IMG/VR virus record: IMGVR_UViG_3300036766_000317
Span: 1 to 64,000 of that record
Source of the DNA: a virus
Strand: one strand, 5' to 3'
Length of the DNA stretch: 64,000 nucleotides
Part shown: positions 11,097-49,676 of the stretch, piece after piece
How the letters are laid out: each line of letters opens with the position of its first letter
How positions within the stretch are numbered: the stretch's first letter is position 1
Notes under the pieces: model-generated
What the model saw: only the letters and a program-made list of their open reading frames with translations
The model's database searches: none
Told to the model about the DNA's origin: nothing
Program-made: the position numbers and the translations under genes

Positions 11097-11725
11097 CCTA
11101 TTCTCCTATGCACCATAAATAAATGAGAATTTGGACATGTCTTAGTATAAGAATCCTTTATTCCTTTAACTTCTGTAGATGAATAAGTACAAACCCAACC
11201 ACACCTACGAAATAAATTAAGCCACCAACTAGAATCCTCACAAATGACATGAGTGATGTCCTTATTATTTGATGGAGCCACATATTTACCGCAAGAACCT
11301 AAAGGGACTATCGTGAACAGTTGTTCCACATTGAATACTTCCAATAAATAAATAAGTTCTTTTTCCGATATATGCTCTAATACATCTTTACAAACGCCAT
11401 ACTTAAAAGGAGACTTGCTTTCTTTCCAATCTGCTAATAGAGTCCTTGTCTTTACCAGATATGGTTTTGCTTCTTCATCTGCATGAGAAAGAGCGTATTC
11501 ACTGACATCCGACCCCCAAGCATCCCTACGTAACATACGCAAAGCCCGAACAAGGTACGCTTTTGCACAACCAAAATCTATAATTGTTTCATTTGGTTTT
11601 ATATGCAGAAAATCAATGATGGACATCGCTAATGGAAACGTGAGTTCGGGAATCCATCTGTAATTCTGATAATTACTCAAGCCCGTTTCTACACCAGATT
11701 CATAATAATCCCGGTCGTAAATCAT
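11093..11725 (-). CDS. class I SAM methyltransferase
   Basis: IDFGCAKAYLV, G.DVSEYA, DVLEH. Confidence 0.85.
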   Translation of the reverse strand: MIYDRDYYESGVETGLSNYQNYRWIPELTFPLAMSIIDFLHIKPNETIIDFGCAKAYLVRALRMLRRDAWGSDVSEYALSHADEEAKPYLVKTRTLLADWKESKSPFKYGVCKDVLEHISEKELIYLLEVFNVEQLFTIVPLGSCGKYVAPSNNKDITHVICEDSSWWLNLFRRCGWVCTYSSTEVKGIKDSYTKTCPNSHLFMVHRRIG

Positions 11726-12666
11726 AAGAAATTTTCCATTTCTGGATTGATAAGTGATTCTACTAAACTATTCTGTGTACCAAAAACACAGTTGGTACAG
11801 TTCTTACTATCATATGGTTTTGCCTTTTTCATGCAAGATTCGATGAAATCTTCCGTAGTCATCCATCTGAATTTCTTATGAAAAGATCGATCTGCCGATT
11901 CATTAAGAACTATAGAACTGCACCTATATACATACCCATCATGAAGAATAAATGGTTTAAAGTACCCCCACCAACATCTTTCAGGCCTTGAAAAAACCTT
12001 CTCTTGATAAAAGAAAGGAGGACCATAATTAGCCACCATTCGGGAAAGACGAATATTAACGTATTTCAACTCGGTTTCGGAGACCTGACAATTGGGAACA
12101 ATCCTTATATACTTTGGATGATATAAATCCGAATAATTCTTGAGTTTATTCCAAGTGCTATTGGTTGTTTTCTCATTGACAACGTAGCTAAATCCGAGAA
12201 CTCCTTTATAATCTGTGGGTATTTCAATATCAGAAACATAATCCAATGAATTTAAAGAAATCCTGATCCAGTCTAAGAAGTCAACATAACTACCAACTTT
12301 ACTAACGAGATCAATTCCATTAGTAATAAACCCTTGTTTAAAACCAAGAGTATTGGCTCGACGGATCACATTTTTAATGAAAGGATATTGTGTAGGGTCA
12401 CCACCACCAGTCCATTCCACTGATTTCGATCCTGATCTTGCCATTTCACATAAAAAAATATGGATACGGGTATTATCCAAATCTTCATGTTTCCGCCTAT
12501 TTACATTGGAACAAAAGACGCACTTGAGATTGCACCTACTTGTAGGTGCAATCTGTAAAGAGATTGGTTTAATCTTTCCAGTATCTTGGAAGAACTTTAG
12601 ATAATCAAGGTGACGTAGGATCTTCTTCCCTGTTGATGTATACACAGACATTTTGAATTCCTCCAA
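11722..12666 (-). CDS. radical SAM/SPASM-twitch protein
   Basis: CNLKCVFC, TGGGDP, ITNG, C-terminal Cys cluster. Confidence 0.85.
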   Translation of the reverse strand: MEEFKMSVYTSTGKKILRHLDYLKFFQDTGKIKPISLQIAPTSRCNLKCVFCSNVNRRKHEDLDNTRIHIFLCEMARSGSKSVEWTGGGDPTQYPFIKNVIRRANTLGFKQGFITNGIDLVSKVGSYVDFLDWIRISLNSLDYVSDIEIPTDYKGVLGFSYVVNEKTTNSTWNKLKNYSDLYHPKYIRIVPNCQVSETELKYVNIRLSRMVANYGPPFFYQEKVFSRPERCWWGYFKPFILHDGYVYRCSSIVLNESADRSFHKKFRWMTTEDFIESCMKKAKPYDSKNCTNCVFGTQNSLVESLINPEMENFL

Positions 12667-25785: not shown

Positions 25786-25814
25786 TTGACACACCAATAT
25801 TGATTTGTTATCAT
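25786..25814 (+). promoter_or_regulatory. major early sigma70-type promoter
   Basis: TTGACA-N17-TATCAT with AT-rich upstream region. Confidence 0.8.
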
Positions 25815-25829
25815 ATAGACAATAAAGAA

Positions 25830-26290
25830 ATAGTGATCTGAGTGTTTTCCAACTTAGATCGAAAGCTCAGAATGATCTTGAGATGCTCTTGACATAGTGA
25901 CCAGTAGCTCTTATGAGTGAAAAACCACACGAGTGAAAGTAGAGCAGTGACCAAAAGACTATTCAGGTTGGTTCAAAAACGATTAGATCACCGACTGCTT
26001 CTGCGAAAGAACTCAAATCCCGAAGAATCTGCTGATTGAACTGAAAAAGGCGAGTTAGGGCGGAGTTTGAATCCCTGGCGTGACATTCTTCTTTCTGGTT
26101 CACTTCTGATTCGATCTTCAACACGATATTTGGCGATGATATAGGCAAAACTGCTTGAGCCAATATAGTGCAGTAGGTCAGAAGTTCTTGATGGTCGTCC
26201 GTAGCTTGACGGTTACTACACAGAACTGCTTTGGGTATACTCTCTTTCTTTTCTCCTTGTCCGAGTATTGTTGTTTGGTGCTCGGACAGT
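25830..26290 (+). ncRNA. long structured leader/candidate ncRNA with boxA-like TGCTCTTGACA (25884-25894)
   Basis: no plus-strand ORF; several stems containing G-U pairs. Confidence 0.5.
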
Positions 26291-27334: not shown

Positions 27335-27386
27335 GTCAGAAGGGTGGAAACATTAATGACATACGGAGAGTCCTAAGTCTCTCGTA
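27335..27386 (+). ncRNA. twister ribozyme, permuted (copy 1)
   Basis: GUCA-GAAGG-[GUG GAAA CAU]-UAA-UGAC...GAGAG-UCCUAAGU-CUCUC; AGG/CCU pseudoknot covariation. Confidence 0.8.
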
Positions 27387-27434
27387 ACTACCAATGGTTT
27401 GGTTGTATAAACCCCATAGGAAAGGAGAATTGAA

Positions 27435-27785
27435 ATGTTATTAGTAGCCATTTTTACAGACGAGAATAGCCAAGAGGATCTGGATTTGCTGTTCACAGAC
27501 CTGGAGGAAACATCATGTGAAAAGGTTCTGGTATTTGATGATGGGAATAAGGTCGTCATGAGAGTTCCCGATGAAATTCCCGATCCTGATTTTGTCGGAA
27601 CCATCGAAGAATATTGGATGTTCGTCATGAATGATTCAAGATGTCCATGCTGTCATCCATCAGAAGAATCAGATGTTTCCGCTGTTCATGAAGTAAAAAC
27701 CCTGAAACAATTTCGGGAATACAGCAATCGGCTCAACAATGGAGAAGGTCCTTACGAGGAACTTCTGAAAGATTTGAAAGATTGA
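27435..27785 (+). CDS. acidic hypothetical protein
   Basis: AAGGAG RBS. Confidence 0.7.
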   Translation: MLLVAIFTDENSQEDLDLLFTDLEETSCEKVLVFDDGNKVVMRVPDEIPDPDFVGTIEEYWMFVMNDSRCPCCHPSEESDVSAVHEVKTLKQFREYSNRLNNGEGPYEELLKDLKD

Positions 27786-27836
27786 GGTCTCACCGGCATC
27801 ATCAGAAATGATGGTGTCTAATGGGTTCTTAATTCA
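27782..27836 (+). ncRNA. intergenic structured motif, family 2 (divergent copy A)
   Basis: 10-bp GAAA-capped stem, outer stem, and alternative 3' hairpin UGGGUU/AAUUCA. Confidence 0.5.
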
Positions 27837-28306
27837 AAAGAAAGGAGAAAGAAAATGAAAACCACCCGTACAGTGTATTTTTGTACAATTTGTAATACCC
27901 AACTTGATGTTTGTGGTTGGGGAAATCGTGCAGAATGTCCGGAATGTAACAAGATGGTTAATGTGAAATCAGTGGAAGTTCCGATTCTGAAAAAGGAGAA
28001 CTGAGATGCCAGTAGAAATCAAAATGATAGCCGGTGCTTTTCTTACTATCGGCATAACCGGAGCCGTGATCTGCATAGCTTCTCATGAATTTGTAGGAAG
28101 TTTGTGGTATATAGCTATTACCATCATTGCTGTTTGGGTTATCTTTAAAAAGTAAAGGAGGAAAAATTATGGGTAAAGAAAAAGAAGTATGCTCTTGGTG
28201 CGGAAAAGAATTGCATGACAACGGGGAAACCACATGGTGTGATTGTGGTTGGTGGGATGCTTTGCCCACAAGAGCCGAAGCCGAAGCCGAAACGAAGTAG
28301 ACAATC

Positions 28307-28540
28307 ATGAGGACACTGGAAATAATTCCAGTGTCCGAAGGGGCTGTCTACATCCCCAATTCAGAAGGGAAGGAAAGAGTTATGCAAATGTCCAATTTAG
28401 AATCAATCAAGATTCGTTGCCAAGAACAAGGATTCTTTGCCCGAATACATCGGTTCAAGAAAGGCAAGAAGCGGATGTTTCGTAAGAAAGAACGGATAAA
28501 TCGGCACATAACCAGGAAAGTTCTTCATATTGAACAGTAG
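28307..28540 (+). CDS. hypothetical basic protein
   Basis: ORF in the early operon. Confidence 0.55.
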   Translation: MRTLEIIPVSEGAVYIPNSEGKERVMQMSNLESIKIRCQEQGFFARIHRFKKGKKRMFRKKERINRHITRKVLHIEQ

Positions 28541-28600
28541 TTTGATGGTAGCGGATTAGCCATGAGAAATCATGGCTTTTCCGCTGCAATTAAGCAGCGA
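28540..28600 (+). ncRNA. intergenic structured motif, family 2 (copy B)
   Basis: UAG-CGGA-UU-[AGCCAUGA GAAA UCAUGGCU]-UU-UCCG-CUGC-AAUUAA-GCAGC. Confidence 0.7.
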
Positions 28601-28628
28601 TTAATTCCTTAAAGGAGGAAAGAAGAGT

Positions 28629-29258
28629 ATGAGTAAAAAATCGAAGAAGGTTGCGGAGAAGAAGGCATTGACTCCGATTAAGAAGTTGACGCCGATTGCA
28701 AAGGCGGACGAGTCAATGAAAGCCAAACAGACTGCGGCGATTGCGGAACTCAAGGCAAAATCGAAGGATGCTGCACCCATAGAGGCACCCGTCGTTGCAG
28801 CTCCTGTCCGTCCCGAAATGCCTGCTGACTTCTGTATGGAGAAAGCAGACTGGGACGGCGCTGGTGTGTGCTACGATGCAGGAAGTAATAACTGCGGAAC
28901 GTGTACGAAGGATTTTCCTGAGACCGTTGCCGTGTGCATCGAGCGCATGAAATTCCTCGGTGGTACTGTGAAAACGGCAAAGACGAAGAAAGCTGGAACA
29001 GCGAAGGCTCGGGTTGCCAAGAATGGTGCGAAACCGCAATGCCTCGTCATTGATGATCTGTTGCGAGCATCAACGGCAATGGCAGACATGATCGCCTCGT
29101 TTGCTGCAATCGCATACGCTGGAGATGCAAAAGCGGCAGAAGGTCGTATCAATCGGCACCTGAAATCCATTCGTGTCGGCGAGTACGTCAGATCGGCTGT
29201 AATGAAGGAATTCATTGCTTATCTGGCCGTTGCTGCGCCGGCAGCTCCCGCTGCTTAG
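28629..29258 (+). CDS. Ala/Lys-rich protein with Cys cluster and C-terminal HTH-like domain
   Basis: C...C..C..C...C region; Q...IDD...RINRHLK domain; biased codon usage. Confidence 0.75.
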   Translation: MSKKSKKVAEKKALTPIKKLTPIAKADESMKAKQTAAIAELKAKSKDAAPIEAPVVAAPVRPEMPADFCMEKADWDGAGVCYDAGSNNCGTCTKDFPETVAVCIERMKFLGGTVKTAKTKKAGTAKARVAKNGAKPQCLVIDDLLRASTAMADMIASFAAIAYAGDAKAAEGRINRHLKSIRVGEYVRSAVMKEFIAYLAVAAPAAPAA

Positions 29259-29266
29259 TGAGAAAT

Positions 29267-29330
29267 TGCAGAGGGCACGGGGTGAGAAAGTTTCATCCTG
29301 TGTAATGCACACTACCGTCCCAAGTCGGTG
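29267..29330 (+). ncRNA. twister ribozyme, permuted (copy 2)
   Basis: GCA-GAGGG-[P1 hairpin]-UAA-UGC-AC...ACCG-UCCCAAGU-CGGU. Confidence 0.9.
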
Positions 29331-29354
29331 AGAAAATCTAAGAAAGGAGAGAGT

Positions 29355-29585
29355 ATGAAAAAGTATTTGGTAGAAGTCCGAAAGAAAGGTGAGAAATTCA
29401 GAGAACCTGGTGAACTGATTGAGACAGTAAATACCATTCTCAAAGCGGAAGAAGTAGGAAATTTCAACCCGATCTTTTGCATCTACAAAGACAAACGTGT
29501 CATGGTAAGTTCTAAAGAAGGAGATTTGAGTGATCCTTTTCGTCGGGAAACTTCATATCTGGAAAGTCTTTATATTGAAATCTAA
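29355..29585 (+). CDS. hypothetical protein
   Basis: AAAGGAGAGAGT-ATG start. Confidence 0.7.
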   Translation: MKKYLVEVRKKGEKFREPGELIETVNTILKAEEVGNFNPIFCIYKDKRVMVSSKEGDLSDPFRRETSYLESLYIEI

Positions 29586-29611
29586 CCACCAACCAAGAAA
29601 GGAGTATTGCA

Positions 29612-29779
29612 ATGAACAAACTTCAGAAATTGGTAGCACAATCGGTAATCGTCGTCCTGTACGGAAACCAGCTTCAAGATGAGAAGTTTGACCAAAGACA
29701 GTTACTTCTCGCCAAAGCAATGTACGAGAAAGAAGTGGACAGACAGTTGAGAAAAGGGTTGGATCTTCGCAATATGTAG
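29612..29779 (+). CDS. hypothetical 55-aa protein
   Basis: AAGGAG RBS, MNKLQKLV... Confidence 0.6.
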   Translation: MNKLQKLVAQSVIVVLYGNQLQDEKFDQRQLLLAKAMYEKEVDRQLRKGLDLRNM

Positions 29780-29834
29780 TTTCAGCGTGGGAAGCAGAAA
29801 TCTTCTGCTTCTCGCGGTGTACCTACACCAATAA
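29775..29834 (+). ncRNA. intergenic structured motif, family 2 (copy C)
   Basis: UGUAG...CAG-[14-bp stem]-GUGU-ACCU-ACACC-AAUAA. Confidence 0.65.
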
Positions 29835-29853
29835 CTATGAGAAAGGAGAGAGT

Positions 29854-30222
29854 ATGGGAAATTCAATAAGATTGCACAAAGAGTTCGGTGTAAATCCGAC
29901 AATCCTAAAATGCTTCCTCTGCGGAGAGGATAAAAATGAAATTGCTCTGTTGGGCGCTTCCTATAAAGGACAAGCCCCTATGCACATGTGCATAGACCAA
30001 ACACCTTGTGACAAGTGTAAGGAATACATGAAACAAGGTGTAATCCTAATCTCCGTGAGAGATGGGGAATCAGGAAGTGATCCTTATCGCACAGGGGGTT
30101 GGTGCGTTGTCAAAAGAGAAGCAATGACCAACATCATTGATGATCCAAAATTGCTTGAGAAAGGAGCGATGTTTGTTCCTGATCCAGTATGGAAACAATT
30201 GGGTCTTCCAAAATTTGTATGA
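29854..30222 (+). CDS. conserved-looking phage hypothetical protein with two CxxC motifs
   Basis: GVNPT...CFLCG...PCDKC. Confidence 0.75.
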   Translation: MGNSIRLHKEFGVNPTILKCFLCGEDKNEIALLGASYKGQAPMHMCIDQTPCDKCKEYMKQGVILISVRDGESGSDPYRTGGWCVVKREAMTNIIDDPKLLEKGAMFVPDPVWKQLGLPKFV

Positions 30223-30286
30223 TTAACCTCAGCTCAGACATGCCAAGAAATTGGTATGTCTGCTGGTGAGATCAATCACCAACTAA
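30220..30286 (+). ncRNA. intergenic structured motif, family 2 (copy D)
   Basis: GAAA-capped stem then CUG-GUGA-GAUCAA-UCACC-AACUAA. Confidence 0.65.
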
Positions 30287-30309
30287 CTAAAGGAGGAAAG
30301 GAGAGTATT

Positions 30310-31077
30310 ATGACATCCAGCGTTCCAAAAGAAGAAATCATCTCGAAAATTATGAAGTTGCTGGCTCTGGGCAGTTCTGAAAAGAACGACAATCCTCATG
30401 AGCGGGAAACTGCTTCAAGGATGGCCGCAAAGCTCATGGCTGAGTGGAGCATCGACTTTGCAGAACTCAGAAGTTCCAAGCCATCAGAGGATGCTTTCGT
30501 CACTTATGAGGTGTCAGGTTCGGAAGACCGAAAAGTGGATTTTGAATCCTCCCTTGCTGGCAGTATTGCAAGGGCTTTCGATTGTAAGATCATCAACACC
30601 TGGACAAAATCATTGGATCATCGGTGGGTTATTGCTTTTGTCGGATCAAAGCATGATCTGGAAATCTCCGTCTATTTCTTCAAACATATTCGGAGAACGA
30701 TGTATGCAATGTCCATTAAAAATGTGACCGTCGAAACAGTGAGGCCCAGAAACGGCAGACGAGCTGCCGGTACAGATGTAAATATGGCTCGGAGAAACTA
30801 CTGCTTCGGTATGGTTGAGACGATCAGCACCCGCATGGAAGACCTCTACAAAAAGCGGGAAGAGTTCATCCCGTCAGATTGCCGAGCCCTCGTCATTGTC
30901 AAGAAACAGGGATTGGAAAAATATTTCAATCAGCAATATCCGAACAGAGTTTCTGGTAGAAGAACTTCTTTACGAGGAGATTTAACAGCATTCGGCAAGG
31001 GGCAGGAAGATGGAAAGCGTGTGAACCTCAGTCGGCCCATTAGCAGTAATAATCAACAATCGGCCCAAATTGGATAA
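30310..31077 (+). CDS. DUF2786 domain protein
   Basis: KIMKLLAL...N.HE...A...A.KLM..W.I; C-terminal A...G...G....L. Confidence 0.8.
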   Translation: MTSSVPKEEIISKIMKLLALGSSEKNDNPHERETASRMAAKLMAEWSIDFAELRSSKPSEDAFVTYEVSGSEDRKVDFESSLAGSIARAFDCKIINTWTKSLDHRWVIAFVGSKHDLEISVYFFKHIRRTMYAMSIKNVTVETVRPRNGRRAAGTDVNMARRNYCFGMVETISTRMEDLYKKREEFIPSDCRALVIVKKQGLEKYFNQQYPNRVSGRRTSLRGDLTAFGKGQEDGKRVNLSRPISSNNQQSAQIG

Positions 31078-31092
31078 AAGGAGGAAAGGAGC

Positions 31093-31236
31093 ATGAAGTC
31101 TTTCAACATTTATTTCAGGGACCTCAATGAAGATGCTCAAAAGAGGTTATTGGAACGGTTTGAAACAACTCCCGAAGAGGAAAATTGGGATACAGATGTG
31201 TTTCCAATAGCAATACTCGATCGGGAAGAGGAGTAA
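31093..31236 (+). CDS. hypothetical 47-aa protein
   Basis: AAGGAG RBS. Confidence 0.6.
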   Translation: MKSFNIYFRDLNEDAQKRLLERFETTPEEENWDTDVFPIAILDREEE

Positions 31237-31327
31237 TTCCAGTTCGGAAATGGGAGCAATTCTGAGAGGTTGAGTGTTAAGCATTCGGTAGGAGTTGTTC
31301 CTGTTTCTTCTGGTGGAATTATCCACC
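31233..31327 (+). ncRNA. intergenic structured motif, family 2 (long copy E)
   Basis: UAAUUCCAG-UU-[long stem]-UU-CUG-GUGGA-AUUA-UCCACC. Confidence 0.65.
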
Positions 31328-31353
31328 TTTACTATAAGAAAAGGAGAAGAGAG

Positions 31354-31533
31354 ATGAAGAATGTTACTATGGAAACGAAAGGTCAGAATTTGGTTCTGAC
31401 GGTCGATCTGTCAAAATCCTTTGGAGCCAGTGCTTCCGGGAAGACGATCATCATCGGAACGACTGAAGGCAATCAGCCCGTTGCCGGACATCCCGGTGTT
31501 AGTGTGGGGGTGAACGTCTACAAAAAGAAGTAG
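31354..31533 (+). CDS. small conserved-looking protein (G.S.SGKT..I.TT.GN)
   Basis: AAGGAG RBS before ATG 31354. Confidence 0.75.
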   Translation: MKNVTMETKGQNLVLTVDLSKSFGASASGKTIIIGTTEGNQPVAGHPGVSVGVNVYKKK

Positions 31534-31589
31534 GCAGAGGGCTCCCGCTTCGGCGGGAGTAATGCACAATCTCGGTCCCAAGTCCGAGA
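31534..31589 (+). ncRNA. twister ribozyme, permuted (copy 3)
   Basis: GCA-GAGGG-[CUCCCGC UUCG GCGGGAG]-UAA-UGC-AC-AAU-CUCGG-UCCCAAGU-CCGAG. Confidence 0.92.
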
Positions 31590-31607
31590 AATTAGAAAGG
31601 AGAAAGT

Positions 31608-31811
31608 ATGGGATATGCAATGATGGTAAGCGAATGTGGAGCATGTCACCAGATATTTTGCTACAATCCCCATCTGGTGCCCAGTCTAAACAATGTTCCT
31701 TTTTGTAAACGGTGTGTCGATGCTTCAGCACCTGAAAGAATCAAAAGGGGATTGGTTCCAATCAAATATTCAGAAGAAGCATACAAACCGATGGACGAAT
31801 GTGAACTTTAA
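31608..31811 (+). CDS. small Zn-finger-like protein
   Basis: CGAC and CKRC; RBS. Confidence 0.7.
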   Translation: MGYAMMVSECGACHQIFCYNPHLVPSLNNVPFCKRCVDASAPERIKRGLVPIKYSEEAYKPMDECEL

Positions 31812-31962
31812 ATTTGAAAGGAGAAATCTCTATGAAACCGTTATACTGTACGCAAAACAAAGGCAAGTGCGAAACTTGCTCCCTTACCAACTATGGTCGG
31901 GATTGTCGGAATGTTCCGATAGCTATAAATCGGAAAAAGGCAAAGCCTGAGAAGTAACTTTG

Positions 31963-32018
31963 GCAGAGGGCTCCGTCAGAACTGACGGAGTAATGCACAA
32001 TTCCGGTCCCAAGTCCGG
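31963..32018 (+). ncRNA. twister ribozyme, permuted (copy 4)
   Basis: GCA-GAGGG-[CUCCGUCAG..CUGACGGAG]-UAA-UGC-AC...CCGG-UCCCAAGU-CCGG. Confidence 0.92.
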
Positions 32019-32051
32019 TTTGTAGCTAAAACAAAAGGAGGAAAGAGAGAT

Positions 32052-32963
32052 ATGAGTGAAACAATGGAAGGGTTGGCCTATGAGCTAACATCCGCAGAGC
32101 GGAAAGATGTTCGTGATCGTTATCCGAAGACCTACTTCCCAAGTCCGGTCTTAGAACCGGTGTGGGCAGGTCGTCGGGAACTCCGCAGAATTCCAGACAA
32201 GTTTGCCATTGTCGATCAATGTCGTCCAGGACCCTTAGACGCATCGAATCAGGTATTCGGGATCTGTTCGGATCAGTACAAAATCGTTCCCTTTGAAGAC
32301 GTGGTGCATATGGTAGAAAATTCAGTCGGAAAATTGACTGAATACGGGAAGGTTCAAATCTGCCCGCACACCTATCTTGACGGAGCCAGATTAAACATTG
32401 GCATCAAATTTCCTGAGATGAAACATGAAATCAGGAAACTCGATTCCATTATTCCGAAAGTAGAGGTGTTTTCCTCTTATGACCTATCAACAAAGTTGAT
32501 GGGTCGTTTCGGAGCATTCCAGCTTAAATGCCTGAATGGGGCGGGTATCTGGAAGTCCTTCAAGAGCTTTGCAAAAAGGCATCTCCAGAATCTGTTTCTG
32601 AATGAACTCGGAAACAACATCAGTGAAGGTATGGCTCTTTTCGGGGAACAGGTTGATTCGTGGAAAAAGTGGACTGAACTGAAGTTAGACCAGAAACTCT
32701 ACGATACTGTTTGGGATGAACTCCCTTTCTCTGCTGCGGAACGTATCAAGATCGAAGCATTACCCGAAATCGGTACGAATCTTCAGTTGGGTCAAGCGAT
32801 CAAAGGAAATTCCCTTGATCTTTGGAGCCTTTCATCGGTATTGACACAATTCGCTACCCATGGTGTCAAAAGCGAATTGCGCCGTATCGAACTGGAACCG
32901 GCAATCGCAAGAGTGATGGACCTCACTTTCGACCGAGCCGCTGTTGCGGGACTCGTGCACTAA
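32052..32963 (+). CDS. DUF932/DUF945-family protein
   Basis: GICSDQYKIV, SYDLS, F...CLNG, KRH motifs. Confidence 0.75.
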   Translation: MSETMEGLAYELTSAERKDVRDRYPKTYFPSPVLEPVWAGRRELRRIPDKFAIVDQCRPGPLDASNQVFGICSDQYKIVPFEDVVHMVENSVGKLTEYGKVQICPHTYLDGARLNIGIKFPEMKHEIRKLDSIIPKVEVFSSYDLSTKLMGRFGAFQLKCLNGAGIWKSFKSFAKRHLQNLFLNELGNNISEGMALFGEQVDSWKKWTELKLDQKLYDTVWDELPFSAAERIKIEALPEIGTNLQLGQAIKGNSLDLWSLSSVLTQFATHGVKSELRRIELEPAIARVMDLTFDRAAVAGLVH

Positions 32964-32996
32964 GAAACAACGAACTGAGCCAGAAAGGAGGTACTT

Positions 32997-33233
32997 GTGG
33001 AGAATGCTTCTATAAAAATGTTAACCGTTGATGATTGTAATCTCCGAATGACTGAGCTAACAAAAGAGTTGGAAGAAGCAATTGAGAAATTGGGCCATTG
33101 TGAAGCTGTGGATTTGCTTGCGGCTAAGATTGCTGTTTGGGAAAGAGTCCGGCATCATTTGGTAAGAGGACAAATCATCACAATTGATGGGGAAGAAAAA
33201 CTGAAGATGTGGGAAAACGTTTTATCGGCATAA
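32997..33233 (+). CDS. hypothetical protein
   Basis: AGGAGG RBS, GTG start. Confidence 0.65.
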   Translation: MENASIKMLTVDDCNLRMTELTKELEEAIEKLGHCEAVDLLAAKIAVWERVRHHLVRGQIITIDGEEKLKMWENVLSA

Positions 33234-33235
33234 CC

Positions 33236-33298
33236 GCAGAGGGCGGACAGTCAGAAATTGGCTGTCCGTAATGCACTATCTGAGTCCCAAGTCTCAGA
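33236..33298 (+). ncRNA. twister ribozyme, permuted (copy 5)
   Basis: GCA-GAGGG-[GAAA-capped P1]-UAA-UGC-AC...UCUGAG-UCCCAAGU-CUCAGA. Confidence 0.92.
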
Positions 33299-33321
33299 AA
33301 TTCTATTAAAGGAGGAAAGGG

Positions 33322-33582
33322 ATGGAACCGATTCAAGACAATTTCTTCAAGAGGTTTCGGAAGAAGGTGGAAGGTATCTTCTACCGAACTCGCGGAAATA
33401 AAGGGACTGCCGATCTTGATCCGATCATTCGGATCGGTCGTCACCATGGTGGGGGTGCTCGTCTTTCTGCTATTTCTTTTGGCGAAAAGAAAGCGTCTCC
33501 CACACTCCGAAAGTACCGACAGCACAGAGATCGAGTAAACAAATTGGGAGCGATCTCCCGCAGGAAGAACCGCATTAATTAG
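33322..33582 (+). CDS. Arg/Lys-rich small protein
   Basis: AGGAGG RBS; flanked by twister copies 5 and 6. Confidence 0.7.
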   Translation: MEPIQDNFFKRFRKKVEGIFYRTRGNKGTADLDPIIRIGRHHGGGARLSAISFGEKKASPTLRKYRQHRDRVNKLGAISRRKNRIN

Positions 33583-33640
33583 CAGAGGGCAGGGCCTATT
33601 GAGGCCCTGTAATGCTACATAGCCAGTCCCAAGTCTGGTT
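33580..33640 (+). ncRNA. twister ribozyme, permuted (copy 6)
   Basis: AGCA-GAGGG-[CAGGGCCU..AGGCCCUG]-UAA-UGCU-AC...AGCCAG-UCCCAAGU-CUGGUU. Confidence 0.9.
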
Positions 33641-33666
33641 AAACTAAAGAGAAAGGAGAGAGTATT

Positions 33667-34786
33667 ATGATTACCAAAGAGGATGCTTTGAAGCTGAAAT
33701 ATCGGGATGAACTGCATTTCGGAGAATGTAGAAAGAAGGTCTCTCCCAGAGGCGGTGTAAAAATTACCAATACCATCGTCCGAGTAAACGGGAAAGTCAA
33801 AACGTGGAAACAGAATCTGAGTAGGTTTGAAGTTCCGATCAAACATGGACTATACGATCATAGTTATGTTGATGAGCGGAATGCTCATGATTTCCATCTC
33901 CCGAAAGACTGCCCGTTACTGAAGGAGTAAATTTATGCACCTACTTCATGAGACTACAGTCAAGAATACAGATGGAACTTATGAAATCACCGTCTACATC
34001 GTCGAAGATGGAAAACGAAGAGGTCCTTACACTTATCTGATTCCATCGGATAAAGAAGTCAGGGACTTCCTTGCTCTGTATCAAAAAGGAAAAAGAGATG
34101 GGTCAAGATTTCATGGGAAAGCCCTATCCCTTCTTAACAAACACCGAACCAGGTTAATCAGAAAATAGGAGGAAAGAGAGCATGAAAAAATCGCAGGTGG
34201 CATTGGCTAACATGATTCGTATAGCCAAAGCATACGGTAATACACATACGGTAGAGATGGAACAAGCTGAGAAAGCCCTTGCTGAACTTTTGACTGAAAA
34301 AGGTCATTCAGTAAGTGATTGGAAATGTGTTCAATGTGATCAGGATCAGTGGGGGAAAGATGTAACCCTCTCGTCTGTCGCAGACGGAGGTGTTCCCATC
34401 TGTCCCTATTGCGAGAACGATATGATCTTGGTTGAAGAAAGATGGGTGGAGGTGGAGCCATGAAGAAGGAATACACCGATGTCAAACTCAAGATGACCCG
34501 TCGCAAGCTGATTGCCCTCGACAAAAAGGATATAGGGAAATGGACACATCAGGAATGTGTTGAGGCAGATCGGCTTATCCAAAACACAGCCATTCGGAAT
34601 CTGAGGAAGAAATTATCCTTCTTCCAGGGAGGAACAGGAAGACTTGTTTCCAACTATGCCATACTGATGGCTCAGTTCCACTACGGATCGGCAGAAACAG
34701 ACGACTTCCTTACAGCAATGGGCTGTTATGAGGATTGGATGTTCTCCGAGGAGCAGAACAAGAAACGGCATTCCAAAAAGTCTTAA
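33667..34786 (+). other. four consecutive small hypothetical ORFs (33667-33930, 33935-34168, 34182-34463, ~34460-34786)
   Basis: tight packing with RBSs; 33667 has RVNGKVKTWK....F.VP.KHGLY; 34182 has two CxxC. Confidence 0.7.
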
Positions 34787-34848
34787 AGTCAGCAGATTGA
34801 GCGGGAACCATTTCCCGCTCTTTCTGGTGTTTTTAAGACACCAATAAA
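34780..34848 (+). ncRNA. intergenic structured motif, family 2 (copy F)
   Basis: CUUAAAG-UCAG-CAGA-UU-[GAGCGGGAA..UUCCCGCUC]-UU-UCUG-GUGU-UUUUAAG-ACACC-AAUAA. Confidence 0.75.
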
Positions 34849-34867
34849 CCAAAGGAGGAAAGAAAGT

Positions 34868-35350
34868 ATGAAGAAAACTTGTGATATTTGCAAGACCTAT
34901 TGGAGAGTTCGGAATGAAAAGAAGACCGAACATCCGTGCCATCCCTATCAGAACCCGATGGAAAAAGTCTGTCAGGATTTTGAGATGGAATGGACTCAAG
35001 AAGCCTGTCTAAGAAAATATCCGAGAGTGGTGGCCCATCTGATCTGTGCCAGTCTCGGCTATTTTACACCTCAATCAGCAGCAAATGCCATTTCGTTTTA
35101 CAAACACGGAAAGGCGTTTTTCTGCGAGTGGTATTCCCATATGACCAAATATTCTCGGGATAACTACAAGGGTGACTATTTTGATGAAGTCATCTGTAAA
35201 CGGGTTGGGGAAGAAACTCTGAGATTGGCATTTGTAGGTCGTCATTCCCATCATGGCTATATGACCGAGATTAAGCAAGCCCGACATCTTGTGGCCGCAG
35301 AATTGAAAACTTCGGGAGCTACATCGGGAATGCTTGCATCTTGGTTTTAG
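34868..35350 (+). CDS. hypothetical protein with Cys/His-rich N-terminus
   Basis: AGGAGG RBS. Confidence 0.7.
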   Translation: MKKTCDICKTYWRVRNEKKTEHPCHPYQNPMEKVCQDFEMEWTQEACLRKYPRVVAHLICASLGYFTPQSAANAISFYKHGKAFFCEWYSHMTKYSRDNYKGDYFDEVICKRVGEETLRLAFVGRHSHHGYMTEIKQARHLVAAELKTSGATSGMLASWF

Positions 35351-35412
35351 GCTGAATATAGCGGGTTGGGCAGGAAGCGTCCTGCTCTTCCTGGTGCATT
35401 CAGTACCAAATA
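35351..35412 (+). ncRNA. intergenic structured motif, family 2 (copy G)
   Basis: UGAAU-AUAG-CGGG-UU-[GGGCAGGA..UCCUGCUC]-UU-CCUG-GUGC-AUUCA-GUACC-AAAUAA. Confidence 0.75.
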
Positions 35413-35431
35413 AAGAGAGAAAGGAGAGGGT

Positions 35432-35761
35432 ATGAAAACAGTAGATATTATGGAACGTCTGAAAATTCCAGAATGGAAGGCGAAGGTTGTCAATGTGCTT
35501 ACCAAAGAACACGCCTCATCCCATTCCGATGTTGACGACATCCTCGGAATTATTGAAACCCTTCTTGAAGGGTACGGGGTAGAACCACTCAGGGGAGATC
35601 ATGTTGATAATTACTATATGGATATCAACATCCTCTACATTAATTTGGGGGACACATACACACCCACCGTTCTGTATGATACACTCCTAAACAGATTCTT
35701 TATCTGTTCGTGGGGTGATTATATTGAATCCAAACCGAAACGATTTCCGATGAATGCTTGA
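35432..35761 (+). CDS. hypothetical protein (GYGVE...Y.N.GDTY..T...F....WGD..E)
   Basis: RBS; motif-like pattern. Confidence 0.75.
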   Translation: MKTVDIMERLKIPEWKAKVVNVLTKEHASSHSDVDDILGIIETLLEGYGVEPLRGDHVDNYYMDINILYINLGDTYTPTVLYDTLLNRFFICSWGDYIESKPKRFPMNA

Positions 35762-35818
35762 GAATAGCAGATTGGACGGGAATTTCCCGTCCTTTCTGGT
35801 GTGCTTAAACACCAATAA
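35757..35818 (+). ncRNA. intergenic structured motif, family 2 (copy H)
   Basis: UUGAG-AAUAG-CAGA-UU-[GGACGGGA..UCCCGUCC]-UU-UCUG-GUGU-GCUUAA-ACACC-AAUAA. Confidence 0.75.
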
Positions 35819-35833
35819 AAAGAAAGGAGAGGG

Positions 35834-36420
35834 TATGGACAGAAAAATGTCGAGTGATCTGGATAACTACATTACCGGACATTACGGGGAAGATCAGTTC
35901 AAAAGACCTCGGAAAAAAGATAAAAAGGGGAAGGAATCATTGGTCCATGAATTAGAACACCAGATGAAGAACCTTAACGTCAGTCAGATGTTGGAATTAG
36001 TCAAGAGATCGGGAAATACGGAAAAACGCAGATTCCGATTAAAAGGCCCTACGGGCAGTTTAGATGGAACTATCCATGATGCCGATTTCGGTATCTTGAC
36101 TATTGACGAAGTACCAGAGTTCTTTCTGGCAAAAGATTTCTTGTTGGCCAATGACGTAGTTTGGGAACTCATTAACTAAACAGAGAAAGGAGATTAGCAT
36201 GGAAGAGCCAATCAAAATTCCAGAGAAGGACAAATTTGTCCGAAATTGTCCGGGTCCCAGATATAAAGTAATTTCAGGTCCTGGAGGGCATTACGTCTAT
36301 GATTACAAGTCTCTGGACGTGGTGAGGAAAGACGGGAAATTCTTTATGGGCAAAGAACCGTCGGAAGCCAGAGAGTTCCTTCAATCTCTAAATGAAGAAG
36401 CTCCCCTTATAGAAAGGTAA
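35834..36420 (+). other. two small hypothetical ORFs (35834-36179, 36199-36420)
   Basis: AAGGAG RBSs. Confidence 0.65.
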
Positions 36421-36569
36421 GGATGGTAATCTATGAAATGTGACCACTGCAATATCGAATTGAAAAAACGCAAGACCCCTCCAAGAACCGCGACAATTGA
36501 CGGGGGAAAGTATTATGACTATTTTCAATGCCCAAAATGCAAAACGAATTATGCCAAAGCCAAAAAGTA

Positions 36570-36623
36570 GCAGAGGACGCTGCTTCGGCAGCGTAATGCA
36601 CAAATCCAGTCCCAAGTCTGGAT
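36570..36623 (+). ncRNA. twister ribozyme, permuted (copy 7)
   Basis: GCA-GAGGA-[CGCUGC UUCG GCAGCG]-UAA-UGC-AC...AUCCAG-UCCCAAGU-CUGGAU. Confidence 0.88.
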
Positions 36624-36648
36624 AAAATAAGAAAAGGAGGAAAGAGCT

Positions 36649-37104
36649 ATGCCAAAAAACGTAAGAAATTTCTGGATCGAAGCAGATGTCGATGGGGGAA
36701 CTCCCATCGGAGCAGGCCCTAAATCCAAAGATGGAGGATTTTCTCTGTCCATCTTCATGCGAGACAAAGGATTCGTCAAGAGGGTCGCCAACATCTCAGG
36801 AGTCGGGGGAAGTGAATTGAAATTATCAATTCATACGGAAGATGGTAAATATTTACAGTATACTACACAAAGGTAACAGATGAAAAAGGAGGAAAGAGCT
36901 ATGCCAATCGAAACAGATTTCACCAATTTGCTCAAGCATATCGATGATGCTTCTGATGGATTGGAACAAAAGGTCGAATCGACGGAAGAGGAGTTGGACA
37001 CTTTGAATACTCTCCTTACGAGAAAAAAAGAGCTTGTCGATAAAATCAACTCCCTCGCCGAAGAGATTGAGGACTTCCTCAACGACGCCAATTCCCTCAT
37101 CTGA
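36649..37104 (+). other. two small ORFs (36649-36876; acidic coiled-coil 36901-37104) with identical 24-nt RBS/start blocks
   Basis: AAAAGGAGGAAAGAGCTATGCCAA precedes both. Confidence 0.7.
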
Positions 37105-37106
37105 AT

Positions 37107-37161
37107 GCAGAGGACAGCCTCAACAGAGGCTGTAATGGACATCTCGGTTCCAAGTCCGAGA
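37107..37161 (+). ncRNA. twister ribozyme, permuted (copy 8)
   Basis: GCA-GAGGA-[CAGCCUC..GAGGCUG]-UAA-UGG-AC..CUCGG-UUCCAAGU-CCGAG; GGA/UCC covariation, one P2 mismatch. Confidence 0.8.
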
Positions 37162-38087: not shown

Positions 38088-38116
38088 TTGACATATCAAT
38101 ATGTTTTTGATATACT
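38088..38116 (+). promoter_or_regulatory. sigma70-type promoter for regulatory/replication genes
   Basis: TTGACA-N17-TATACT. Confidence 0.8.
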
Positions 38117-38147: not shown

Positions 38148-38573
38148 ATGGAAATTCAAAGTTCCCTTTTTGAATCAACACAGCAGGAGGGGGGATTTGT
38201 GCCCTCTCGCAAAAGAATTGGGCCGAGACCTATGGTCTTAAAATCGATGGAGATTTTAACCAAAAATGTTCCCGATATCCCACATAAAGAGGAAGTTGAT
38301 CGTCTTATGCAAGCAACAATCAATCGTATGTACATCCCCAGATCCGAATATCTTGAGTATATAGAAGTTTCCAAACTTCTCATTACGGCTTCCGAAAAAT
38401 TTCGGATGACTATTTCAAATGTGGTAGACGGGGCTTTAGAACTCATGAGAAAATTGCCGAATCTATATAGCAACCAAGCTATCTTCATGTCGTTGGAAGA
38501 GCCGATTTATGGATTTGCAATCAAGAAATCCATAGCAAATACAGTTGTAAGGAGAATGATATGCCGAAAATAA
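38148..38573 (+). CDS. hypothetical protein
   Basis: AAGGAG RBS. Confidence 0.65.
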   Translation: MEIQSSLFESTQQEGGFVPSRKRIGPRPMVLKSMEILTKNVPDIPHKEEVDRLMQATINRMYIPRSEYLEYIEVSKLLITASEKFRMTISNVVDGALELMRKLPNLYSNQAIFMSLEEPIYGFAIKKSIANTVVRRMICRK

Positions 38574-41031: not shown

Positions 41032-41036
41032 AATAA

Positions 41037-41122
41037 GGGCTGGTAGGATCAGCCAGCCCGTCTGAGTGGTGACAACCATTTTACTCCTTATTGGGAACTC
41101 ACCACTCAGACTTTATTTTTTT
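41037..41122 (+). terminator. double-hairpin element ending in a U-tract
   Basis: GGGCTGG/CCAGCCC hairpin, then 13-bp GTCTGAGTGGTGA/TCACCACTCAGAC stem and TTTATTTTTT. Confidence 0.65.
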
Positions 41123-41133
41123 AAGGAATATCA

Positions 41134-42015: not shown

Positions 42016-42078
42016 TTTTGTTGTAAGAAATTTGCTAATTAAGATATTTCCGATACTTATTTAGGTTTTTAATTTTAC

Positions 42079-42110
42079 TTGACAAATCAAATCTGCTGTT
42101 ATATATAATA
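42079..42110 (+). promoter_or_regulatory. sigma70-type promoter
   Basis: TTGACA followed by a TATATAAT -10 region. Confidence 0.55.
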
Positions 42111-42143
42111 CCAAAATGAACTAAATTCAAAGGAGAAATAATT

Positions 42144-48420: not shown

Positions 48421-48651
48421 ATGGAATACATTTCAGTGGAATCTTCCAACATAGAAAAGATCGGATACGACGATCAAAAGAGACAATTTCACATCCTCTT
48501 CCTCAAGAAAATCCATTACATCTATTATGATGTACCTGTAAAAACGTATGAAGAATTTCTAGCCAGCGATAGCAAGGGCCGATTCTTTGCTCAGTTTATC
48601 AAGGGTATGTATGCCTATCAAAATGTAACCGGGCAAGTGGAGACGGACTGA
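48421..48651 (+). CDS. KTSC domain protein
   Basis: VESSNI..IGYD, Y.Y..VP, S.S.G.FF. Confidence 0.9.
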   Translation: MEYISVESSNIEKIGYDDQKRQFHILFLKKIHYIYYDVPVKTYEEFLASDSKGRFFAQFIKGMYAYQNVTGQVETD

Positions 48652-49676
48652 TGAAGGAAATCAACCACATAACCAAGGCGGAAATTTTATGGTCCCGAAC
48701 CTGCCCCCTATCCTGTTCTTACTGTGCTATAGCAGACGGTAGAAGGAATACAGTACTGCTTACAGAATGGTTTAGGGGCATTGATCAACTGAAGCAATTA
48801 GGATGTTCTTTCCTTGCCTTATATGGGGCGGAACCACTGGCGGACTTCGATAAACTTCCCGAAGTTATTGAGTTTTCAGAAACAATAGGCATACACACCA
48901 CAGTCATTACAAGTGGCTGTGTGCCCGATTTAAATAGTAAATTATACTCCTTATATAGTAAAGGACTTCGTTCCATAACAACGTCTTTTGATATCAATCC
49001 TTCTGACAATTACAGCAAGCGAAAGACCAATCAAGCCTTAAACGTGATTGATTACTTCCGATCCCTCGGACCTGTTCGGGATTCCGCTATAGTTGTCACC
49101 CTCACAAAAGAAAACTATCATCTTCTTCCTGATGTCATTCAATTTATGTCCGATAAAGACATCTGGACATTCTTTGATCTTATTCATCCCGATAGAGGAC
49201 AACCCGGATCGAAAGTAAAGAATACCGATCTTGATCTTCTATTCAAGAAGGAAGACTTTGCTCCTCTATTAAATGTTCTACAGAAGGTGGGGGAGATGAA
49301 AAAGAAAGGATATCTGTGCCATTCTAGTTATCATTTCTTTGAAACAATGAAGCTTGTCGGGGCCTATATGCAGACGATTCCCGATTCTCCTATAGCCCCT
49401 TACATTTGGAACTGTTCTGATTACGATTGTTTTCCGTCTTGGGTGACGGTGGATTGCCAGGGGGATGTCCTCCCTTGCGATGATTTTTATACAACAGATG
49501 CTCCCATCATCAAAGTCTGGGAGATAGCAGATCTATGGGATAAGTTTTGTAAGATTTGGAAACCTATTGTAAAAGAAAGATGTCCCGGATGTTTGTGGAA
49601 TACTCATATCGACTCTCATTTAATCAAACGTGGTCTATTACCAATGGATCAATATATTCATGGGATAACCAACTAA
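48651..49676 (+). CDS. radical SAM/SPASM-twitch protein of unknown reaction
   Basis: CPLSCSYC, YGAEP, G.V.PCD, C.GC.W. Confidence 0.85.
   Translation: MKEINHITKAEILWSRTCPLSCSYCAIADGRRNTVLLTEWFRGIDQLKQLGCSFLALYGAEPLADFDKLPEVIEFSETIGIHTTVITSGCVPDLNSKLYSLYSKGLRSITTSFDINPSDNYSKRKTNQALNVIDYFRSLGPVRDSAIVVTLTKENYHLLPDVIQFMSDKDIWTFFDLIHPDRGQPGSKVKNTDLDLLFKKEDFAPLLNVLQKVGEMKKKGYLCHSSYHFFETMKLVGAYMQTIPDSPIAPYIWNCSDYDCFPSWVTVDCQGDVLPCDDFYTTDAPIIKVWEIADLWDKFCKIWKPIVKERCPGCLWNTHIDSHLIKRGLLPMDQYIHGITN

Follow-up and report, generated by a model that had tools for sequence, protein, structure and literature searches.

The early polycistronic RNA of phage T7 is cut by the host's RNase III at irregular intergenic hairpins, which leaves 3′ hairpins on the products, and in the engineered hammerhead-type insulator RiboJ a ribozyme and a hairpin placed before the ribosome-binding site (RBS) provide a fixed 5′ leader regardless of what lies upstream. 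In prophages, multiple hammerhead ribozymes flank single genes or short gene blocks and cut in vitro, and the processing of long phage transcripts has been proposed as their role (Perreault et al. 2011, PMC3088659). A 2019 review extends this idea to twisters, which are found near phage genes and whose purpose it describes as undefined (PMC6765202). Here we analyse an array of twister ribozymes in the virus record IMGVR_UViG_3300036766_000317, a phage genome of 91,824 base pairs (bp) that is rated complete by CheckV and carries capsid, terminase and replication genes. The first 64 kilobases (kb) of this record form the window, to which all positions refer unless another locus is named.

The closest described class is the type-P5 twister (Rfam RF02684; the class of Roth et al. 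2014, per PMC5408937), with which the elements of this phage share the chain order, the conserved loop nucleotides and two pseudoknots, T1 and T2. They differ from its consensus in T2, which is G–C plus C–G there but A–U plus C–G, and covarying, here; in having no P5 helix; and in forming an array that is fitted between stop codons and RBSs. Like the prophage hammerheads, they lie several at a time on the coding strand between genes or short blocks, with predicted pieces of one to nine genes that match the arrangement described for those ribozymes, and the same role can be proposed for them. The hammerheads, however, are another ribozyme class and their cleavage was shown in vitro, whereas cleavage here is predicted from the sequence; this phage family also has larger arrays, of 7 to 20 per genome, and their geometry has been measured. 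The logic is that of the T7 RNase III sites, a long early RNA cut between genes to leave 3′ hairpins, except that here the RNA itself would do the cutting. The design is similar to that of RiboJ, but the array is a natural one, made of twisters, and an insulating effect is predicted by likeness. We propose that these elements are probably active type-P5 twisters in one long phage transcript, which would cut itself at the U–A step of each copy and thereby uncouple the stability and translation of the resulting pieces. A phage transcript punctuated by ribozymes has been proposed since 2011 (PMC3088659) and in reviews of 2017 and 2019; what we describe is a clean example and not a new kind of element. 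The additions are modest: a measured geometry, conservation at orthologous junctions and the replacement of twisters by hairpins.

Seven type-P5 twisters in one gene block

The initial annotation of this DNA, made from the letters alone, had read eight intergenic copies of a shared core as circularly permuted twisters, had assigned their L1, P2 and L4 elements, and had named a search with the Rfam twister models as a check (paired stems, loops and pseudoknots are designated ‘P’, ‘L’ and ‘T’, respectively). In an Rfam scan of the window, seven of these sites are full-length matches to RF02684 (Twister-P5) above its gathering score of 37.6 bits, which we used as the threshold; all lie on the plus strand, at 41.7–64.4 bits (Table 1). 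The eighth, at 27335, is not matched by Rfam at a threshold as loose as E ≤ 10, and the count of eight therefore stands for seven clear copies and one weak, divergent copy. Judged by these scores and by the covariation described below, the seven sites are genuine type-P5 twister ribozymes with L1, P2 and L4 assigned as initially read, and the element itself belongs to a known class. The window contains 7 occurrences of the core motif put forward in the annotation, where chance would give 0.38. The annotation's description of the hairpin caps is likewise accurate, with UUCG loops at 31533 and 36569 and GAAA-type loops also present. The seven or eight copies span 9.8 kb. An Rfam scan of the remainder of the 91,824-bp genome gave no further Twister-P5 copy, and the window holds no other ribozyme class at E ≤ 5 and no tRNA genes.

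The site at 27335 is best described as a divergent, possibly weakened twister. Scored with a model (R1) made from five twister copies of the window, it reaches only 16.9 bits (E = 0.005), little more than the best background match at 14.9 bits. The layout is kept, with GAAGG, a 3-bp P1 closed by a GAAA loop, UAA and UCCUAAGU, and the pairs of P2 (UCA/UGA) and T1 (AGG/CCU) are compensated; in T2, an otherwise invariant cytosine has become U. The gene downstream of it has orthologues in two related loci, L066 and L061, and in both these are preceded by good twisters. A little further along, at 27786, is an apparent twister relic that has lost the 5′ core and the P4 stem. In the same two loci, the orthologues of the gene ahead of this relic are followed by intact twisters.

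Table 1 Coordinates of ribozymes, related elements and promoter-like sites in the window. Cuts are predicted to fall between the two positions given.
Feature	Position	Strand	Basis	Predicted cut
Sigma-70-like promoter (TTGACA, 17-nucleotide spacer, TATCAT, TG extension)	25786-25814	+	11/12 consensus positions	
Divergent or degenerate twister-like copy	27335-27382	+	own model R1	27354/27355 (putative)
Twister relic (P1-like hairpin, then UAAUGGG and UCUUAAUU)	27786-27854	+	sequence and fold	
Two-hairpin element	28301-28381	+	sequence and fold	
Two-hairpin element	28541-28628	+	sequence and fold	
Type-P5 twister, long P1	29267-29329	+	RF02684, 45.3 bits	29303/29304
Two-hairpin element	29780-29853	+	sequence and fold	
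Two-hairpin element	30223-30309	+	sequence and fold	
Two-hairpin element	31237-31353	+	sequence and fold	
Type-P5 twister, UUCG-capped P1	31533-31587	+	RF02684, 55.9 bits	31560/31561
Type-P5 twister	31962-32018	+	RF02684, 59.1 bits	31991/31992
Type-P5 twister	33235-33296	+	RF02684, 42.9 bits	33269/33270
Type-P5 twister	33581-33638	+	RF02684, 64.4 bits	33610/33611
Two-hairpin element	34787-34867	+	sequence and fold	
Two-hairpin element	35351-35431	+	sequence and fold	
Two-hairpin element	35762-35834	+	sequence and fold	
Type-P5 twister, UUCG-capped P1	36569-36621	+	RF02684, 48.7 bits	36594/36595
Type-P5 twister, T1 GGA/UCC (compensated)	37106-37159	+	RF02684, 41.7 bits	37133/37134
Second sigma-70-like promoter, TG extension, ahead of the gene at 38148	38088-38116	+	11/12 consensus positions	

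Conserved fold and covariation

A scan of IMG/VR with the AC/GU-T2 motif gave 71 loci, often with several matches per contig, and these loci were searched with a covariance model, which returned 213 matches at E ≤ 0.001. The best 150 of the 213, comprising 129 distinct sequences from this phage and related viral contigs, make up the set used here. They were aligned by fitting to the covariance model; MAFFT alone misaligned the copies with a long P1. Standard pairs fill 99.2% of the cells in this alignment, compared with 72.4% when shuffled and 26–43% when partners are slid by 1–3 columns, values to be read with the knowledge that in each locus the scan had fixed the core of one or more copies and that the model guided the alignment. 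Any copy with a covarying variant must be one that the scan pattern had left free. Changes on both sides are seen in 16 of the 19 base pairs, and all five helices covary, the pseudoknots T1 and T2 included.

Each helix contributes to this pattern. P1 is 98.3% paired with both-side changes in 7 of its 7 pairs, P2 is 99.5% paired with such changes in 2 of 3 (GCA/UGC becomes GUG/CAC in three copies), and P4 is 100% paired with changes in 3 of 4. T1, at 99.5%, covaries at 3 of 3 pairs, from GC to AU or CG, in the variants GGG/CCC, AGG/CCU, GAG/CUC and GGA/UCC and a single CGG/CCG. T2 is 100% paired, with A–U in 123 copies, G–C in 4 and G–U in 2, and reads AC/GU in all seven good copies of the window. 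These seven also share GA-GGG, UAA-UG and UCCCAAGU, compensated T1 variants excepted.

The chain runs in every copy through the 5′ strand of P2, the P1 hairpin, the 3′ strand of P2 and the P4 hairpin, so that its ends lie between P4 and P2. No P5 helix was found where it would close these ends: the best contiguous pairing of the flanks is 2.50, against 2.42 ± 0.08 with shuffled partners. The RF02684 model is likewise without P5 pairs, and because twister types are defined by the location of the chain ends and the P5 stem is optional (PMC5408937), its absence does not exclude membership of type P5. Stems that vary yet remain paired, a covarying pseudoknot (GGG/CCC, AGG/CCU, GGA/UCC), AC/GU in place of the usual T2 pair and a type-P5 chain order without a P5 helix had all been proposed from the window copies, and each of these features extends to the larger set.

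Two copies in related loci depart from the common form. Twisters are cleaved at the U–A step beside P1 (PMC5408937); a well-scoring twister in locus L035 (5288-5344) has C–A at the scissile step instead, together with the consensus G–C T2. In locus L016 (9585-9735), P1 carries an insertion of approximately 100 nucleotides (nt), and this copy lies upstream of the orthologue of a gene for a 209-amino-acid (aa) protein.

Position between stop and start codons

The ribozymes occupy a narrowly defined position between genes. Of the 129 distinct copies, 126 are closely preceded by the end of an open reading frame of 40 codons or more, with a median gap of 0 nt between stop codon and ribozyme (quartiles −2 to +2). 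In 102 of these 126 the last base of the stop codon falls in the range −5 to +4 nt from the ribozyme's first base, and in 49 of the 102 the stop codon takes in the ribozyme's first base or first two bases and forms part of P2. On the other side, a start codon with a Shine–Dalgarno sequence follows the end of the ribozyme at a median of 27 nt (quartiles 23–30), across a 3′ flank that is A-rich and has no pairing to the 5′ flank. All copies are on the coding strand. The window's own copies obey the same spacing and lie, as the first description of them had it, between a stop codon and the next RBS; the first base of the 31533 twister is the last base of the upstream stop codon, and P2 of the 33581 twister is overlapped by an upstream UAG stop.

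Such tight or overlapping 5′ junctions could make cleavage conditional. A ribosome terminating there would open P2, T1 and some of P1, and cutting, or the release of the pieces, would then be set by translation of the upstream gene. We consider this unlikely: simple genome compaction explains the tight junction equally well, no sensor element is visible, and twisters in general cleave fast and may cut before the first ribosome arrives.

The same junctions in related phages

Arrays of this kind are a property of the phage family. Three phages whose capsid proteins are 76–84% identical and whose polymerases are 51–62% identical to those of this phage carry 13 (G001), 20 (G002) and at least 9 (G004, a genome 56% complete) Twister-P5 copies, and G003, an unrelated phage of 83 kb, carries 15. 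In each of these genomes all copies are on one strand, within approximately 10 kb. Ribozymes are often found at the same gene junctions across relatives at just 30–66% protein identity. A twister follows the orthologue of the 209-aa gene (the 29267 junction) in 8 of 8 matching related loci, duplicate contigs included, the orthologue of the gene at 32997 (the 33235 junction) in 4 of 5 related loci, and that of the gene at 36901 (the 37106 junction) in 3 of 3. Several relatives also have a twister where this phage has a tight junction.

Beyond these viral contigs, the isolate phage collection gave no match by megablast with 13 kb or by blastn with one ribozyme, and the capsid protein found only remote matches there, at approximately 26% identity. 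Relatives of a 303-aa protein of this phage were not found in viral contigs. Assemblies of widely differing bacteria contain the AC/GU twister variant as well, and it therefore offers no clue to the host. The phage DNA comes from sediment metagenomes; among the listed sequencing runs, the single one with the full stretch is a sediment metagenome, which may be the source sample, and none is an RNA run.

Part of this distribution would also be expected if the ribozymes were mainly boundaries of exchangeable gene cassettes, their core acting as a short DNA homology for the shuffling of small genes between phages and RNA cleavage being secondary. Gene order varies among the relatives while genes retain the ribozymes at their ends, presence at orthologous junctions is variable, and the same core recurs in many unrelated viral contigs and diverse bacterial assemblies. 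We nevertheless give this account little credence. The identical stretches amount to three blocks, each of at most 9 nt; the stems differ with compensating changes, which argues for selection on RNA structure and not on DNA identity; and the strand and the spacing to stop codon and RBS are fixed. Less probable again is that the copies have lost their activity and serve no function today: this genome does hold one relic, one degenerate copy and two more copies with single mismatches, but the core nucleotides and every helix persist, with compensating changes, across the range of protein identities given above.

A transcript that would cut itself

The genes from 1 to approximately 25 kb are on the minus strand and structural (major head protein, protease, terminase), and the GC skew flips at 25–26 kb. 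On the plus strand, 26.3–38.1 kb holds approximately 37 small genes, mostly without a family match; further small genes separate these from the replication genes (helicase, primase, DnaB, clamp, polymerase, SSB and recombinase). The ribozyme block thus lies upstream of the replication genes and is oriented away from the structural genes. Every ribozyme lies between the region's two best promoter-like sites, at 25786 and 38088. No convincing terminator was found between them, and beyond 38088 there is neither a twister nor one of the two-hairpin elements described below. The site at 25786 is the likely start of the ribozyme-bearing transcript and is followed by a leader of approximately 540 nt. 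The block fits an early transcript of approximately 12 kb driven by the host polymerase, where ‘early’ is suggested by gene order and the promoter-like sites. A common strand, the fixed stop–ribozyme–RBS geometry, a single promoter-bounded block and junctions shared with relatives all fit a self-cleaving polycistron.

On this proposal, RNA initiated at 25786 would run through the approximately 37 small genes, and each ribozyme would fold upon transcription (P2, P1, P4, T1 and T2) and cut UAA after its U. The upstream piece would retain its stop codon, and its 3′ end would be the stable P1 hairpin followed by a single U bearing a 2′,3′-cyclic phosphate. This end should resist 3′ exonucleases, because PNPase and RNase II require a single-stranded 3′ tail. 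The downstream piece would start with a 5′-OH, the short P4 hairpin, an unstructured A-rich spacer and the RBS; with the start codon approximately 27 nt past the ribozyme, each downstream gene would receive the same short leader, whatever lies upstream. Eight cuts would give nine pieces of 4, 6, 6, 2, 2, 1, 9, 2 and 4 genes, and the stability and translation of these pieces would be uncoupled from each other without a host RNase.

The same ends might instead serve for joining or circularisation by an RtcB-type ligase, with the ends of a piece meeting as complementary twister halves, but this is the least credible of the alternatives: T1 complementarity between neighbours is exactly at chance (45/93, against 45.0 ± 3.0 with the order shuffled within each array) and that within single ribozymes is 98/113, the phage encodes no RtcB, and circular or spliced products of hammerhead arrays were sought and not found (PMC3088659). 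In locus L002 (minus strand), seven successive twisters have the T1 sequences AGG, GAG, AGG, GGG, AGG, GGG and AGG, and no neighbours match.

Several points weigh against a self-cleaving transcript. Cleavage is, for every copy, a prediction from sequence, and the promoters and terminators are called from consensus matches alone. A ribozyme stands at only 8 of the approximately 36 junctions of the block, and most of the predicted pieces hold several genes instead of a single one. Three copies have defects: the 27335 twister is weak overall, T1 of the 36569 twister sets GGA against CCC, as a single mismatch or a slipped register, and P2 of the 37106 twister holds a G–G mismatch. Ribozymes are gained and lost at orthologous junctions, so that no single site is indispensable. 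Nor is a 5′-OH protective in every host, since the Bacillus RNase J1 degrades the 5′-OH product of the glmS ribozyme. The ribozymes' identity and structure, their positions and their conservation are observed, and from these we infer cleavage in vivo, a single transcript and the effects on stability and translation.

Two-hairpin elements at other junctions

Nine other junctions of the block have gaps of 69–117 nt; one of these holds the relic at 27786 and the other eight each hold a two-hairpin element (Table 1). These elements consist of a long hairpin, directly followed by a short one (often GGUG..CACC), an A-rich tail (often AAUAA) and the RBS. Their fold z-scores range from −3.2 to −6.9, and the second hairpin ends approximately 21–25 nt before the start codon, near the distance at which P4 of the twisters stands. 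The near-identical elements at 34787 and 35762 show a compensated double change in the long stem. Rfam has no family for the two-hairpin elements at E ≤ 10. A model of them (R2) found copies in this genome only and none in the 71 twister-bearing loci, where its two best matches fall in coding sequence, and a looser DNA pattern for the motif gave single, chance-like matches only.

The junction ahead of the 209-aa gene holds a twister in four relatives but a two-hairpin element in this phage and in G004, its nearest relative. G004 (locus L035) has further two-hairpin junctions similar to those of this phage, plus a relic with P4 and a UCCAAAGU loop. On the simplest interpretation, hairpin pairs arise by the decay of twisters or take their place at equivalent junctions, which hints that the hairpins themselves matter. 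More tentatively, the two-hairpin elements, including the similar ones in G004, could be working successors of twisters that have kept P1-like and P4-like hairpins and the distance to the start codon but lost the catalytic core, and that now act as host RNase sites or, less likely, as a minimal self-cleaver not yet described; we regard this as possible but doubtful. They might be a closer analogue of the T7 RNase III sites than the twisters are. If they are such successors, ribozyme and protein-enzyme sites would swap at equivalent junctions within one operon.

Leader and neighbouring features

The leader after the 25786 promoter-like site has two conserved patches. A pyrimidine tract, ACUCUCUUUCUUUUCUC, lies at 26238-26257, approximately 95 nt before the first gene; it is 92–100% conserved in G001, G002 and G004, in a surrounding leader that is not conserved, and is a near-perfect complement of the purine-rich RBS blocks used across the operon. 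The second patch, at 25948-25994, is 83% identical to G002 and includes AAAAACGATTAGATCA.

Downstream of the ribozyme block, a terminator-like hairpin followed by a T run is found after the helicase gene (41032-41133), and a strong sigma-70-like promoter lies in the gap at 42016-42143, ahead of the replication-initiator block. Two radical-SAM-like proteins are encoded in the window, one in the structural block (11722-12666, minus strand) and one in the replication block (48651-49676, plus strand).

Implications

Knowledge of the twister class itself is unchanged by these results. The role of self-cleaving ribozymes in bacteria and phages has yet to be settled in the literature (PMC6765202, PMC5408937), and for this question the phage family is a natural case of great regularity, with a fixed stop–ribozyme–start geometry and arrays of 7 to 20. 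Its likeness to engineered ribozyme insulators suggests that the parts could be useful. From one member of the family to another, a junction can carry an intact twister, a decayed one or a two-hairpin element, and these may serve as natural controls with which to ask whether adjoining genes owe their stability and translation to cleavage, to the hairpins or to both.

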